A stretch of DNA of 63,951 nucleotides, filler included, from an uncultured Methanosarcinales archaeon (lineage in GTDB: Archaea > Nanobdellota > Nanobdellia > Woesearchaeales > CALCXY01): the NCBI GenBank assembly GCA_964385185.1. It is 4 parts of 4 records of this genome, joined end to end, with 100 filler letters (N's around TTAATTAATTAA, not from the genome) between each part and the next. Parts side by side here need not be neighbours in the genome. Positions count along the whole stretch, not along the records: positions 21,261 to 41,078 come from CAYLOA010000022.1; 3 more parts are not named here. One strand, 5' to 3'. Shown in pieces: positions 1 through 60,475 of this stretch. Every line of letters starts with the position of its first letter. Position 1 is the stretch's first letter. A program made the translations under genes and the position numbers. The notes beneath the pieces are model-generated. The model saw only the letters and a list, made by a program, of their open reading frames with translations, did not search any database and was not told where the DNA came from.

Positions 1-524
1 TATGCAGCTAATATTTCTGTTACTAGGCAATCTTCTGTTTTCTTTTTAGCATTAAATGCTTTATGATATGCTCCTTGTACCATATGTCTTAAAGCAATGT
101 CTATTCTTCTTTGTGGTGCACATTCAACTGCTTTAGGATATCTTGCACCCCCATATTCGATGGAGATAATCTCTTCTCTTGGAGCACCGTTTTCAATTGC
201 CTTAACTAAGACTTTGATTGGGTTTTCCTTTGTTTGAGCTTCGATTTTCTTTAAGACATTCTCTGTGATTTGATAAGCGTTCTGTGATTTACCAGTAATG
301 TGTCCTGAGGATTTAAAATGTTTTTTTGATTTATGTCCAGGGCACATAATTTTATTCATTAATCGTTCAACAATAAAAATCTTTGATTTGTGGAATCTGT
401 TACCTGCGTATCTTGCACCTGTTTTAGGGACTACTCTAGGTTGTAGTTGAATATAGTCTGCTAGACCAGGATCCTCTACTTTAATGCTTTCTGTTTCCCA
501 TCTATTGAATGCTAATACGGTCAT
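1..524 (-). CDS. rps7: 30S ribosomal protein uS7 (3' end runs off window)
   Basis: Manual translation MTVLAFNRWETESIKVEDPGLADYI...KAIENGAPREE...YGGARYPKAVECAPQRRIDIALR; directly downstream of S12. Confidence 0.95.
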   Translation of the reverse strand, partial: MTVLAFNRWETESIKVEDPGLADYIQLQPRVVPKTGARYAGNRFHKSKIFIVERLMNKIMCPGHKSKKHFKSSGHITGKSQNAYQITENVLKKIEAQTKENPIKVLVKAIENGAPREEIISIEYGGARYPKAVECAPQRRIDIALRHMVQGAYHKAFNAKKKTEDCLVTEILAA

Positions 525-9319: not shown

Positions 9320-9382
9320 TTTTGTTTCTAAACGTTTGTGTTATTCGACAATCCCCTTTGTTATTTGGTATGTATGATCGTA

Positions 9383-9471
9383 CGGGCCGGACGAGATTTG
9401 AACTCGCGACAGCTGGATTAAAAGTCCAGTGCTCTGTTGCCCACATTTGTTCCAGGCTGAGCTACCGGCCC
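9383..9471 (-). tRNA. tRNA-Lys(TTT) with 15-nt D-loop intron (9437-9451)
   Basis: Acceptor GGGCCGG/CCGGCCC, anticodon arm CTGGA-CTTTTAA-TCCAG, T-loop TTCAAAT; removing AACAAATGTGGGCAA restores GCTCAGCCTGGCAGAGC and a 74-nt tRNA. Confidence 0.92.
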
Positions 9472-9475
9472 ATTA

Positions 9476-9623
9476 CGCCCTGGCCGGGAAAATCTCATCC
9501 CCACGAACGTGGTGAATGTTTCGAACCCGGGTCGAAGCCTTACTTCCTGCAATTGAATGCAGTCGACAGGGCTTCATGATAGTTACTGCAGCTTGTCGCT
9601 GTGCCAGACTACACTACCAGGGC
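9476..9623 (-). tRNA. tRNA-Asp(GTC) with three introns (D-loop 9583-9602, anticodon loop 9541-9563, T-loop 9490-9519)
   Basis: Removing 20+23+30 nt gives GCCCTGGTAGTGTAGTCTGGCCTATCATGAAGCCCTGTCGAGGCTTCGACCCGGGTTCGAATCCCGGCCAGGGCG, a typical 75-nt archaeal tRNA-Asp. Confidence 0.92.
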
Positions 9624-9872
9624 GAACGTCAGCAAACCTTCTACTCTTTAATAAACGTCTAATTAGACTCTATTAAGTGTGTAGAAAGATTTTTCTGGCA
9701 TTTAAGAATAGAGTAAAGAGCCTGTTTATAAAGCTTTCTCTTTTGTAACCTAAATTATACTATCTAGAAGAAATCACGTATTTCATGTACGGATTTAGAG
9801 TTTATGAGGTATTGATATATATAAATATTGTGGAGCTGGGTTATAATTTGATGCAAGATTTAGTAACCTTTC

Positions 9873-10660: not shown

Positions 10661-10984
10661 ATCCCTCCCCCCAGATTACTACGTTAAGTATGAATCCTGC
10701 AGGTTAACTAAGTAATGGAATGGTTTATGATGCAATGTGCGAAAGAGTTAAATACCTAATAAACAGAGAATTAATCAATGGTTAATAATATTTTGATTCA
10801 GGAGACTCCCAGTAGTAAAGTAACCATTTATACAGTAGTAAGTACTGTGATTAATCTGATTATCGGTGTGCTTATATTACTAATAAGTGCCATAGTAATT
10901 AAGGGAAAACTTCAAGTTGGAAATTATTTGATTTTTATTGTACCTTCTTTTGTCGTTATTGGATTGGTCGTAATAATTTTTCTT
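10661..10984. repeat. 324-bp perfect direct repeat, copy 1 (copy 2 at 15814-16137)
   Basis: Identical by eye from ATCCCTCCCCCCAGATT to ...GTAATAATTTTTCTT; includes promoter and first 69 codons of a membrane protein. Confidence 0.95.
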
Positions 10985-15470: not shown

Positions 15471-15778
15471 AGCAAGATTTAGATAAGGAAGCAGGTAAGG
15501 TTGTAAAATTAAGTGCTAAAGCTCAAAAAACAATGCTTGAAGAGTATCAGAGATTATTTCAACTTTTCAAAGATACAAAGAAATTTCAGGAGATTTTGCG
15601 ACAATTATTAGTATTAATGCATGCTCAAATTTCTAATTCTGGAAATAAAGAATTATTAGAGATGATTGAACGGGTTGAAGAGGATGTTGACAGAGAAGAT
15701 AGACAAATAAAAAGTCAAGGCATTAGAAAGGCACAACAAAGTAGAATTAAAGGTACTAAATTAAGCTTTAGGAAATAG
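15458..15778 (+). pseudogene. C-terminal fragment of a coiled-coil protein
   Basis: Frame opens after TAA at 15434 with no ATG or promoter space; helical, charged composition. Confidence 0.5.
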
Positions 15779-15930
15779 AAAAGTAGGGCCCAGAACAATG
15801 TCCTGAGCCCTGGATCCCTCCCCCCAGATTACTACGTTAAGTATGAATCCTGCAGGTTAACTAAGTAATGGAATGGTTTATGATGCAATGTGCGAAAGAG
15901 TTAAATACCTAATAAACAGAGAATTAATCA

Positions 15931-16404
15931 ATGGTTAATAATATTTTGATTCAGGAGACTCCCAGTAGTAAAGTAACCATTTATACAGTAGTAAGTACTG
16001 TGATTAATCTGATTATCGGTGTGCTTATATTACTAATAAGTGCCATAGTAATTAAGGGAAAACTTCAAGTTGGAAATTATTTGATTTTTATTGTACCTTC
16101 TTTTGTCGTTATTGGATTGGTCGTAATAATTTTTCTTGTTAAGAGTAATAAATCCTATAATTATTATGTGATGGGAGATGGTGTCAAAAGCATTTATAGT
16201 TTTTTGTCAACTAAAGAATCTATGGCTAAATTCGAAAAAATAACAGATATCCAGATTTCTCAAGGTATGTGGCAAAAAGTTTTTAAAATTTATAGTGTAT
16301 CTTTTCAAACTGCTGGTTCAAATATTTCTGAGGTCGTCTTCCACAACATTGATGATCCTGTAAAGTTGAGGAACCTAGTGAGTAAGAAATTGGGACTAAA
16401 ATGA
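15931..16404 (+). CDS. Membrane protein with bacterial PH (bPH_2, YdbS-like) domain
   Basis: 2 TM segments then FEKITDIQISQGMWQKVFKIYSVSFQTAG. Confidence 0.85.
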   Translation: MVNNILIQETPSSKVTIYTVVSTVINLIIGVLILLISAIVIKGKLQVGNYLIFIVPSFVVIGLVVIIFLVKSNKSYNYYVMGDGVKSIYSFLSTKESMAKFEKITDIQISQGMWQKVFKIYSVSFQTAGSNISEVVFHNIDDPVKLRNLVSKKLGLK

Positions 16405-16928: not shown

Positions 16929-17007
16929 TAATTATAAAATTTCTCATTTTTTGGAATCTAAGTCTACTTTGTTTGTAATTTTATATAAGTAATCATTCTT
17001 TTGTAAG

Positions 17008-17039
17008 AAAAAAAAGGCTCAGAACAATGTCCTGAGCCC
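17008..17039 (-). terminator. Hairpin plus U-tract downstream of tRNA-Tyr
   Basis: Minus strand GGCTCAGGAC-ATT-GTTCTGAGCC followed by T8. Confidence 0.6.
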
Positions 17040-17043
17040 TGGA

Positions 17044-17169
17044 TCCCTCCCCCCAGATTCGAACCGGGAACCTTTCGGTCTCAGCTGACTTGGTGTCATT
17101 CAGTGCTTTATACACAGTCTCCAAGCGATTATCTACAGCCGAACGCTCTAGCCATTGAGCTAGGGAGGG
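17044..17169 (-). tRNA. tRNA-Tyr(GTA) with 53-nt anticodon-loop intron (about 17080-17132)
   Basis: CCCTCCC/GGGAGGG acceptor with archaeal C1-G72, TTCGG-CTGTAG[intron]A-CCGAA, TTCGAAT T-loop; 73 nt after splicing. Confidence 0.93.
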
Positions 17170-17259: not shown

Positions 17260-17375
17260 TCACCACTACTACTGGCACACACAGTGTGCAGTAGTGGTGA
17301 AAACAGTATTTCTTTAAGGGCTCGCAGTCGTAAGACTGCGAGAGTGGGCACTCTGTGAGTGCCTCTGTTTTTTTT
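17260..17375 (+). other. Three consecutive hairpins followed by a T-run (candidate ncRNA or palindromic-repeat cluster)
   Basis: TCACCACTACT...AGTAGTGGTGA; CTCGCAGTC-GTAA-GACTGCGAG; GGCACTC-TGT-GAGTGCC; then poly-T. Confidence 0.55.
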
Positions 17376-17574: not shown

Positions 17575-18309
17575 TTAGGCGGGAATGATTCTTCCCGTCT
17601 GAGTTACCCTATAGGTTCCCGTCATTTCACTATCAGGTTGGGGATTATTGAGATAGATTGCTCTATTTTCTACTGCTTGAGTTACCATCATCTCAGGGTG
17701 TGGTTTTCTGATAGTAATATGCATATTTCCTTGTCTATCCTGATTTTGTTCAACAACATGTCCACCCGTAGGTAGTTCAAAGAGTAAATGATCTTCTTCA
17801 ATATTAGCTTCTCCCATAATTGCTTCGTATCCCGTTACAAATATTTTCGTACCGATATATTCCAACTCTTTGGTTTCTTCGGGTTTAGGGTGCATGTTTA
17901 TGGGCGGGACAATATCATCCTTCTCTTTTTCCTTGTAGTTGGTAACCTTCATGGATCCTCCCCATGGTTCTACTGTTTCCTGGATTTCACTTCGAATTCT
18001 AGTAGCCCCTAAATTGATTTTAGCGTTATAGGCTTTGAATACTACATTGAAGTTTTCATCATAGGTAATCATACCTGCAAGGTTTCCTTTTTCATCTTTA
18101 ATGTGGTATTCTTTCTTTGCTAAGTATCCACAGTTTGCTACGTCGGTAGATTCTTCTTGTAATTCATAAGAGTATTCACTAAATATTTCCATATCTAATA
18201 GATTATGTTCTAGACTTTGTTTCAATTTTCTGTTGAGTTCTGTGTCTCTCATGTATTGTTCCCATGAAAGTGCTACATTCTTTGTGTCCATAGTATCTTC
18301 TAGTGTCAT
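17575..18309 (-). CDS. Hypothetical protein
   Basis: 244-aa ORF with GAGGT SD, coupled to upstream small ORF. Confidence 0.75.
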   Translation of the reverse strand: MTLEDTMDTKNVALSWEQYMRDTELNRKLKQSLEHNLLDMEIFSEYSYELQEESTDVANCGYLAKKEYHIKDEKGNLAGMITYDENFNVVFKAYNAKINLGATRIRSEIQETVEPWGGSMKVTNYKEKEKDDIVPPINMHPKPEETKELEYIGTKIFVTGYEAIMGEANIEEDHLLFELPTGGHVVEQNQDRQGNMHITIRKPHPEMMVTQAVENRAIYLNNPQPDSEMTGTYRVTQTGRIIPA

Positions 18310-18485: not shown

Positions 18486-18619
18486 TTTTTTACCTCGTGA
18501 TTCAATAGATATTAGAATAAGATATAGCTATAAGAAATTGTCAATATAAGGTATATAGAATTGTTTCAGTCTTACGACTGCGAGGATAGAAAAAAATAAA
18601 ACAAAATAAAATTAGAAAG

Positions 18620-21160: not shown

Positions 21161-21260
21161 NNNNNNNNNNNNNNNNNNNNNNNNNNNNNNNNNNNNNNNN
21201 NNNNTTAATTAATTAANNNNNNNNNNNNNNNNNNNNNNNNNNNNNNNNNNNNNNNNNNNN
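21161..21260. other. Artificial contig linker
   Basis: N-run with TTAATTAATTAA (six-frame stops); same at 41079-41178 and 60376-60475. Confidence 0.97.
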
Positions 21261-26042: not shown

Positions 26043-26169
26043 TCTAAGGAATAAGCTAAGCTTATTCCTTAATTCCCACTTCTATCGATTTGAAAAAATA
26101 TACATTATGTTATTTAAAATAACACTCAAGAATATTCTCTAAAAAATTTGAAATAGGAATCACAAACGA

Positions 26170-29750: not shown

Positions 29751-29868
29751 AAAAAACGCCAACGCCCGGAACAACTACACAAGTTAGTTGACCCCTACTT
29801 CGGATTGGAGGATTTCACTTCGTTCAACCCTCTAATGCTCATGAAAAGAAAAAACGCCAACGCCCGGA
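29751..29868. repeat. 20-bp direct repeat of tRNA-Ser 3' end enclosing a 78-bp hairpin insert
   Basis: AAAAAACGCCAACGCCCGGA at 29751-29770 and 29849-29868. Confidence 0.88.
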
Positions 29869-29978
29869 TTTGAACCGGGACATCCGTGAGGAAACAACCG
29901 CTCCTCGCTTCACTCGGACCATTTCAGCCGAGCTGAAACTTTCCAGGGTTGCGCAGTACCAGGTTGTGCCACGTTGGC
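29855..29978 (-). tRNA. tRNA-Ser(GGA) with 40-nt anticodon-loop intron (about 29901-29940)
   Basis: GCCAACG/CGTTGGC acceptor, CAACC-CTGGAA[..]-GGTTG, long variable arm, G73; 84 nt after splicing. Confidence 0.9.
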
Positions 29979-30146
29979 ATAGCTAACGTGGCGACCACAA
30001 ACTCTGTTTGGGTGTATGCCACGTTGGCGAATGGAATGAGACTACGTGGCGACCGTGGATTTTGATCCACGTGTATGCCACGTTGGCGAATGGAATGAGA
30101 CTACGTGGCGACCGTGGATTTTGATCCACGTGTATGCCACGTTGGC
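29979..30146 (-). repeat. Three tandem hairpin units (50, 59, 59 bp), each starting with nt 1-12 of tRNA-Ser
   Basis: TGCCACGTTGGC ends at 29978, 30028, 30087, 30146; units 30029-30087 and 30088-30146 identical. Confidence 0.92.
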
Positions 30147-34575: not shown

Positions 34576-34884
34576 TTAGGCGTCAATCATTTCAATTTTG
34601 TAACAGTGCCACTCGAGGGGTTGAGCAAAGCGAAATCCCTCATACGTTGTACGTAGCCTTCTAAGCGGACGCGCTTAGGCGTCAATCATTTCAATTTTGT
34701 AACAGTGCCACTCGAGGGGTTGAGCAAAGNNNNNNNNNNNNNNNNNNNNNNNNNNNNNNNNNNNNNNNNNNNNNNNNNNNNNNNNNNNNNNNNNNNNNNN
34801 NNNNNNNNNNNNNNNNNNNNNNNNNNNNNTACGTTGTACGTAGCCTTCTAAGCGGACGCGCTTAGGCGTCAATCATTTCAATTT
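34576..34884. repeat. 99-bp tandem units duplicating the last 23 nt of rps10 (copy number hidden by N gap)
   Basis: TTAGGCGTCAATCATTTCAATTT at 34576, 34675, 34862 with the same hairpin-rich insert. Confidence 0.85.
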
Positions 34885-35173
34885 CAATATTCAATCCCTC
34901 AGGTATAGGAACACGCATTACCAACCTAAGAGCTCGCTCATCTATCCCTAAATCAATTAAACGTTTATGAATTCTCATCTCATAACGTTCCCAAGAAGCC
35001 TTACCTTCACCACAAGGACTTTTTCTTGTAGTAACTTTTAATCGTTTAGTAGGAAGAGGAATAGGTCCACGCATATTAACACCTGTTTTCTCAGAGATAT
35101 CGTTGATATAACTACATACCTCGTTGACTTTACTAATGTCAGTCGATGCTATCTTGATTCGTGCTTTTGGCAT
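34862..35173 (-). CDS. rps10: 30S ribosomal protein uS10
   Basis: [34 protein letters not shown]. Confidence 0.97.
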
Positions 35174-35230
35174 TTTGTGCGTGTACCGCATGATAAACAA
35201 GGGTTCATCATGAAAAGGAAATTAAAAAAA

Positions 35231-41078: not shown

Positions 41079-41179
41079 NNNNNNNNNNNNNNNNNNNNNN
41101 NNNNNNNNNNNNNNNNNNNNNNTTAATTAATTAANNNNNNNNNNNNNNNNNNNNNNNNNNNNNNNNNNNNNNNNNNNNA

Positions 41180-60375: not shown

Positions 60376-60475
60376 NNNNNNNNNNNNNNNNNNNNNNNNN
60401 NNNNNNNNNNNNNNNNNNNTTAATTAATTAANNNNNNNNNNNNNNNNNNNNNNNNNNNNNNNNNNNNNNNNNNNN

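Follow-up and report, generated by a model that had tools for sequence, protein, structure and literature searches.

Gene and intron at the tRNA-Ser(GGA) locus

The window, by which we mean the whole stretch of DNA analysed here (63,951 nt, 35% G+C), encodes archaeal proteins, and a Pfam scan of 36 of its proteins identified split RNA polymerase subunits, L15e, S10, EF-1 alpha, EF-2, and FtsZ. Runs of N with a short all-frame stop linker at 21161-21260, 41079-41178, and 60376-60475 are artificial contig joins, and features across these joins are not readable as continuous. A tRNA-Ser(GGA) gene lies on the minus strand (Table 1) and is matched by the Rfam tRNA model with 39.3 bits (E 8.4e-07; gathering score 29). 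The preliminary description had recognized a tRNA-Ser intron here, and this is confirmed by the 40-nt intron that ARAGORN places at exactly the same position; under laxer filters the Rfam match concurs, placing 41 inserted nt in the anticodon loop. The joined exons form a complete Ser(GGA) cloverleaf in ARAGORN. With default settings ARAGORN, and Rfam at its gathering score, report tRNA-Glu only and miss the tRNA-Ser(GGA) gene; relaxed splicing motifs of the kind described below defeat default annotation here. The segment 29901-29940 is an ordinary inherited tRNA-Ser(GGA) intron, located between nucleotides 37 and 38.

Table 1. Features of the tRNA-Ser(GGA) locus and of array C, in window positions.
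Feature	Position	Strand	Basis or remark
tRNA-Ser(GGA) gene with intron	29855..29978	-	ARAGORN with introns allowed (29854-29979); Rfam tRNA model
5' exon, acceptor 5' strand to nucleotide 37	29941..29978	-	ARAGORN, Rfam
40-nt intron, canonical 37/38 site	29901..29940	-	ARAGORN (gene positions 40-79); Rfam; relaxed BHB search
3' exon, nucleotide 38 to discriminator	29855..29900	-	ARAGORN, Rfam
Inner helix h', 5' strand, intron nt 2-7	29934..29939	-	5'-splice-site bulge just ahead
Inner helix h', 3' strand, intron nt 29-34	29907..29912	-	Overlaps loop and inner stem of module 2
Weak central helix, 3' strand, intron nt 35-38	29903..29906	-	Relaxed BHB search
Module 1, alternative hairpin	29921..29939	-	Drawable; ensemble pair probability 0.009
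Module 2, alternative tandem G.A hairpin	29902..29918	-	Drawable; ensemble pair probability ~0
Insert B, 84 nt, between tRNA 3' end and its second copy	29771..29854	-	G.A hairpin and second hairpin
G.A hairpin of insert B	29808..29832	-	7-pair outer stem, tandem G.A, two pairs, three-base loop; 34.7 bits
Second hairpin of insert B	29772..29790	-	3' of the G.A hairpin
Orphan copy of the tRNA's last 14 nt, and T run	29751..29770	-	Start lies 98 nt from that of the original copy
Three tandem units, 59/59/50 nt	29979..30146	-	First 12 nt of the tRNA repeated at the start of each unit
Array C, tandem 99-nt units	34576..34884	+	N gap at 34730-34829 (scaffold gap)

Several other features of the window also concern tRNA genes or short repeats. 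Two tRNA genes at 9380-9630 (minus strand) are missed by both ARAGORN and Rfam, and reading together with a scan for bulge-helix-bulge (BHB) motifs identifies them as an apparent tRNA-Asp(GUC), interrupted by three intervening sequences that include a 30-nt insertion in the T loop, and a tRNA-Lys(UUU) with a D-loop insertion of ~13 nt. The 3' end of tRNA-Tyr with its trailing hairpin is repeated at 15777-15830 and 17006-17059 (1,229 nt apart, 93% identity), and an exact 300-nt repeat is present at 10661-10960 and 15814-16113; these repeats could reflect either stacked integrated segments or an assembly duplication, and the ORFs between them include no integrase. An ORF at 17575-18309 is flanked by two oppositely oriented copies (17321-17342 and 18567-18598) of a G+C-rich hairpin that has 9 pairs and a four-base loop.

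Intron fold, splice-site register, and orthologous introns

The preliminary description divided the intron into two modules, and both can indeed be drawn as hairpins: at -7.3 kcal/mol, module 1 is an 8-pair stem closed by 3 nt, and at -2.5 kcal/mol module 2 has 3 outer and 2 inner pairs on either side of a tandem G.A, likewise with a 3-nt loop. The predicted fold, however, is a single long hairpin, with an energy of -21.8 kcal/mol as against -14.1 kcal/mol for the two-hairpin fold when the anticodon stem is enforced. At minimum energy under this constraint the long hairpin is formed by intron nt 2-7 pairing with nt 29-34 and nt 9-15 with nt 21-28, closed by a five-base loop, and pair probabilities in its basal helix are 0.64-0.99. 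The intron by itself folds with -14.8 kcal/mol (z -2.75), and 2 of 200 shuffled sequences are equally stable. The minimum-energy fold of the whole pre-tRNA is not a cloverleaf and was set aside as uninformative. Nearest-neighbour energies take no account of bound proteins and may rate tandem G.A motifs as too unstable, and because of these limits the two-hairpin fold is a possible alternative; the working fold of the intron is most likely one irregular hairpin, as modelled.

The standard archaeal BHB motif has two 3-nt bulges on opposite strands with a 4-pair helix between them and a further helix on either side, and is cut after the second base of each bulge. No clean BHB had been evident in the preliminary description, and a strict search (central helix of at least 3 pairs) finds no candidate at the 29901-29940 intron, but in a relaxed search the top candidate of the whole pre-tRNA removes exactly these 40 nt. 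This candidate has an outer helix of 6 pairs corresponding to the anticodon stem, an inner helix of 6 pairs, and a central helix with 2 of 4 positions paired, and it presents two three-base bulges in exact register, one per cut. Within the central helix C32 and U33 pair with two G's, and the anticodon bases G34 and G35 stand opposite A and G; the central positions are thus only half paired because two of them oppose anticodon bases. Two further introns of the window have central helices with 3 and 2 of 4 pairs, respectively, and among 39 intron-bearing tRNA-Ser calls, some of them doubtful, 38 have a register that reproduces the ARAGORN product, with 4, 3, 2, 1, and 0 central pairs in 5, 13, 13, 6, and 1 of these calls. 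Weak central helices are therefore nothing out of the ordinary in this genome and lineage.

The gene, its intron position, and the register are shown by these results, and the mechanism that we propose builds on them: the anticodon stem would serve as outer helix and the six basal pairs of intron nt 2-7 with nt 29-34 as inner helix, with a splice site behind the second base in each of the two bulges, and the relaxed BHB would be cut by the splicing endonuclease, with the exons then presumably joined by the tRNA ligase. The intron is like archaeal 37/38 BHB introns, a class that extends to relaxed motifs in lineages whose enzymes have broad specificity, in its position, size range, registered three-base bulges, and strong outer and inner helices, but differs from them in that just 2 of 4 central pairs are standard and G34 and G35 face purines. 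In general, tRNA genes are more disrupted where the DPANN endonuclease carries an extra loop (PMC5829648).

Related loci (designated by L and a number) were identified by a T-arm and acceptor 22-mer scan of genome contigs, which yielded at least 120 loci, mostly from Woesearchaeota or Nanoarchaeia MAGs and without the window's own genome among them; long flanks are present in 80 of the loci listed. ARAGORN with introns allowed, a procedure that misses non-canonical introns and makes some doubtful calls, gave at least 88 tRNA-Ser calls in at least 122 matched regions, and 26 of the calls among the matches listed have anticodon GGA, 13 with an intron and 13 without. The nearest exons among the matches listed are those of L022, L014, L078, and L115. 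L022 has near-identical exons and a 37-nt intron at the 37/38 site, where L014 and L078 have introns of 36 nt and 42 nt, respectively. Each of these three introns folds as one long hairpin, and the five-base end loop in L022 and L014 resembles that of the window intron. All three show two purine mismatches opposite G34/G35, as in the window, and have an inner helix one base off the ideal register. The tRNA-Ser(GGA) gene of L115 (about 210-330, minus strand of the locus) is a very close ortholog, with the anticodon stem and base 38 identical to those of the window gene; it is not called by ARAGORN and by reading contains no 37/38 intron and a D-loop insertion of ~20 nt.

An alignment of orthologous introns had been suggested as a check in the preliminary description, and a MAFFT alignment of the four introns (window, L022, L014, and L078) has gapless 3' ends up to the splice site. 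As a guide to the fold it is less informative: MAFFT with RNAalifold recovered the anticodon stem and a 5-pair inner helix only, and four introns are too few to choose between the long-hairpin and two-hairpin folds. The shared site, the shared build, and the 3'-end alignment therefore argue for inheritance of the intron in a small clade, and it is variably present in relatives and highly variable in sequence elsewhere.

Duplication-flanked inserts and the tandem G.A hairpin

Inserts accompanied by duplicated gene ends flank the tRNA-Ser(GGA) gene on both sides. L115 contains, at the corresponding position, a counterpart of insert B (the insert behind the 3' end), and its second hairpin shows a compensatory change. 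The three tandem units ahead of the gene form strong hairpins (z -3.4 and -5.3), and a G.A core lies beside the duplicate in units 1 and 2 when these are read on the plus strand; counterparts of these upstream units are present in L014, L027, L088, and L091 among the matches listed. A third example is array C, which is on the strand opposite to the S10 gene (34862-35200, minus strand) and starts within its last 23 nt, each unit comprising a G.A hairpin (34615-34641; 34.7 bits) and a copy of these last 23 nt. An AT-rich, TATA-like stretch is situated ~30 nt ahead of the first unit of array C. The hairpins of B and C are clearly related to each other, with compensatory changes. A search of both tRNA flanks and of array C against Rfam at permissive thresholds found no family. 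Two other identities were considered and rejected: B and C as box C/D or H/ACA guide RNAs (no boxes and no pocket on reading against the consensus), and the inserts as BHB introns near tRNA ends (no well-flanked candidate at cuts one repeat period apart).

The family design is a stem, a tandem G.A, two pairs, a loop of 3-4 nt, two pairs, a tandem G.A, and a stem. A fixed pattern taken from B and C gave 0 matches in the 120 loci listed and is too narrow, and members were then found by a structural scan and covariance models, of which R1 was built from hairpins B and C only and is too specific, and R2 was built from six family members. At least 179 tRNA calls were made in the loci listed; the 3'-end 12-mer is repeated within 200 nt downstream in 16 of 177 calls, and the 5'-end 12-mer within 200 nt upstream in 16 of 178. 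Twelve of these 32 inserts (5 of the 3'-end and 7 of the 5'-end inserts) contain a G.A hairpin whose strand points away from the tRNA, where ~0.7 would be expected from the background of the relaxed motif (614 matches in 2,514,238 strand-bases, or 0.244 per kb). The inserts are 38-188 nt long, often in tandem, and occur at tRNA-Ser, tRNA-Ala, and tRNA-Glu genes in the window and in L002, L014, L022, L027, L044, L046, L065, L070, L088, L091, L102, L114, and L115. The earlier impression of gene-end hairpins of a single design thus holds good, both in the window and in related genomes, with the hairpins situated inside duplication-flanked inserts.

R2 detects five members outside its training set. 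Four of them (L044, L046, L022, and L065) are new matches in 1.17 Mb searched with default filters (E at most 0.052) and all lie within ~80 nt of a tRNA gene end, three being beside tRNAs other than the query, namely tRNA-Ala (L046), tRNA-Ala (L022), and tRNA-Glu (L065); the fifth (L091) came from a search of short loci with filters off. The next R2 match, in L073 (E 0.49), has no tRNA nearby. Positions within 120 nt of a tRNA call make up 4.7% of the bases in the loci listed. The commonest 11-base core has four exact occurrences, all no more than 40 nt from a tRNA end. Across the six aligned members all four G.A bases are invariant and 9 of 10 stem pairs vary on both sides, with stem covariation values reached by 0 of 500 shuffles, in a set of members preselected by a scan that requires pairing. 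The G.A mismatch exists on one strand only, which argues for a motif acting at the RNA level. The gene-end hairpin is a real tandem G.A hairpin that marks duplication-flanked inserts. Rfam contains no family for these inserts, and our literature search was not aimed at gene-end inserts.

A perfect 12-pair palindrome at 26045-26071 abuts the 3' end of tRNA-Glu(CUC) and scores 15-20 bits with the G.A models, yet has standard pairs at the G.A positions; no duplicated end of tRNA-Glu(CUC) follows it.

The K-turn and the K-loop are RNA motifs bound by L7Ae, with the K-turn defined by a three-base bulge that separates the canonical stem from the G.A pairs. Presumably the G.A hairpin design resembles an L7Ae-type K-loop: a tandem G.A beside a very short stem or loop, a strand-specific motif, invariant G.A bases, and covarying stems are common to both. 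It differs from the K-turn in that, with its outer stem paired, it lacks the three-base bulge, and no match is found in Rfam. The sequence of module 2 would permit tandem sheared G.A pairs, a geometry that is not visible from sequence. Box C/D guide RNAs are known inside archaeal tRNA introns such as that of tRNA-Trp; the 40-nt intron is too short for a full set of C, D, C', and D' boxes, and reading it against the consensus revealed one D-like tetramer and no C box, with no Rfam match.

As short hairpins at gene ends, sometimes in tandem, the inserts are also like MITEs and repetitive extragenic palindromes. They differ from both in that the copies are not near-identical within the genome, the duplications are long and variable (at tRNA ends from 12 nt to 24 nt or more, and in array C 55 nt), a G.A mismatch is conserved on one strand, and one insert is positionally conserved between genomes. 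MITE-like elements have several near-identical copies in a genome, terminal inverted repeats, and a target duplication; for module 2 there are no near-identical copies in the window and no duplication at its borders. Another parallel is the proposal of Sugahara et al. (2012) for Caldiarchaeum, in which a recombinase-bearing mobile element accounts for intron gain and for tRNA fragments (PMC3293823). The two cases are alike in that pieces of both tRNA ends, 5' and 3', adjoin the gene and intron content varies among close relatives, but the Caldiarchaeum element is 1.8 kb and carries a recombinase, whereas the inserts described here are gene-free and 38-188 nt long, with no recombinase among the 36 window proteins scanned. 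The Pfam scan of these proteins likewise found no integrase, transposase, endonuclease, or L7Ae.

Relation of the intron module to the inserts

Read on the minus strand, module 2 fits the G.A family design, and the preliminary description equated it with the motif of the gene-end inserts. This equation stands as regards the design and one close counterpart, the L002 insert hairpin located 32 nt behind a tRNA-Ser(UGA) gene, to which module 2 is identical at 17 of 19 bases. With the covariance models module 2 scores marginally or not at all: it is absent among the 16 R1 matches (E up to 10), and R2 scores it at 12.5 bits, rank 6 of 21, with an E of 0.81 that is not significant window-wide, the hairpins of B and C both reaching 34.7 bits. 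The exact 17-mer of module 2 has one copy in the window and is also unique at up to three mismatches. In the L022 and L014 introns, a G.A motif with the commonest family core plus one extra loop base and with 2-pair outer stems ends four bases ahead of the 3' splice site, as in the window, and R2 with filters off finds nothing at either intron.

We lean, by a narrow margin of confidence, towards a likeness between module 2 and the insert hairpins that is not due to chance, in which case it would stem from common descent or from a shared RNA-binding partner. The reading that comes nearest to this in plausibility is that the 3' third of the intron is shaped by the needs of the BHB alone and the G.A hairpin is an accident of drawing, a serious contender to which we nevertheless give well under an even chance. 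The far more stable long hairpin uses the same bases, the outer stems of the intron G.A motifs have 2-3 pairs only, and the family models give marginal or no matches. Motifs this simple are also common: the generic structural pattern occurs 10 times in the window where 5.4 are expected (7 of 200 null sequences reach 10), the loose core 38 times against 32.7 expected and so without enrichment, and other loose motif counts in the window show no enrichment either; cores within one edit have 35-52 chance-level matches in the loci, and of 35 such matches 5 are near tRNAs. Against accident stand the position of the 19-mer match behind another tRNA-Ser gene, in loci where so small a share of bases is close to a tRNA call, and its rarity, as the L002 hairpin is the sole match with at most three mismatches in the 1,257,119 bases of the loci listed and 2 of 400 shuffled 19-mers match the loci equally well. 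The core in the second member of the intron lineage, one base away from the commonest of the family, speaks in the same direction.

If the likeness is real, a mobile origin is one way to account for it. The preliminary description proposed that palindromic micro-elements create or expand tRNA introns and so explain a high intron load; here, a mobile palindromic element from gene ends would have inserted into and expanded a shorter tRNA-Ser intron. We consider this unlikely. The excess of G.A hairpins in duplication-flanked inserts, the tandem arrays, the 17 of 19 identity to an insert hairpin, and the variability of the intron among close relatives (half of the listed tRNA-Ser(GGA) calls are without one, and L115 has none at 37/38) are all in keeping with it. 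However, module 2 has no gene-end duplicate beside it and is unique in the window; the G.A motifs of the orthologous introns are at an equal distance from the 3' splice site; insert B is conserved in position rather than mobile; and the order of parts differs, in that a hairpin precedes the G.A hairpin in the intron and follows it in the inserts. Since introns of the same build with an in-register G.A motif are present in relatives, any acquisition must be older than these species. The three hairpin copies in the window differ strongly from one another, and this divergence, together with the conservation of insert B with compensatory changes, points to selection on RNA structure and not to recent copying. 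A fresh mobile insertion in the intron is thus not supported, nor is the claim that such an element created or expanded this intron, in view of the orthologous in-register introns, the lack of a duplication, and the divergent copies.

The proposed enrichment of the motif in introns is found numerically: of the 89 predicted introns, 3,565 nt in all, 4 contain the relaxed motif where 0.87 would be expected, but three of the four belong to a single tRNA-Ser(GGA) lineage, and the other four introns of the window have no R2 match. With so few introns involved, no matches in other introns, no duplication, and a different order of parts, an explanation of the intron load by these elements is unsupported. 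A broader version, in which G.A hairpins are tiny elements that duplicate gene ends and the 3' module of the tRNA-Ser(GGA) intron is either a recipient or a source, is equally doubtful. The targets of such elements would be tRNA genes and at least one protein gene in Woesearchaeota, and the route for a source would be circularised intron RNA.

Archaeal tRNA introns get circularised, and a circular intron read from the G.A hairpin onwards would have its parts in the order of the inserts, with hairpins that match in sequence; descent of the gene-end inserts from excised circular intron RNA copied back into DNA is even so highly improbable, as no reverse transcriptase or recombinase is among the 36 window proteins scanned, no likeness extends beyond the hairpin, and the inserts (38-188 nt) are mostly longer than the introns (36-42 nt).

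The reading we favour, and consider probable, is that of an inherited intron that folds as a long hairpin with a relaxed BHB, in which module 2 is an old, in-register component, not a recent insertion and not the source of the intron load. The intron would accordingly be of a known kind, possibly with a shared RNA hairpin module that is not matched in Rfam.

The locus offers a small and testable case for the origin of archaeal tRNA introns, in that the G.A hairpin, a strand-specific motif, appears to be common to the last third of the intron and to duplication-flanked inserts beside tRNA genes of this lineage. A real link would suggest either a shared factor for the processing of pre-tRNA introns and trailers or a donor of intron sequence; were the likeness due to chance, the locus would remain a clear DPANN example of a relaxed splicing motif. 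Should descent between element and intron prove true, archaeal tRNA intron sequence would have its first concrete donor-recipient link.
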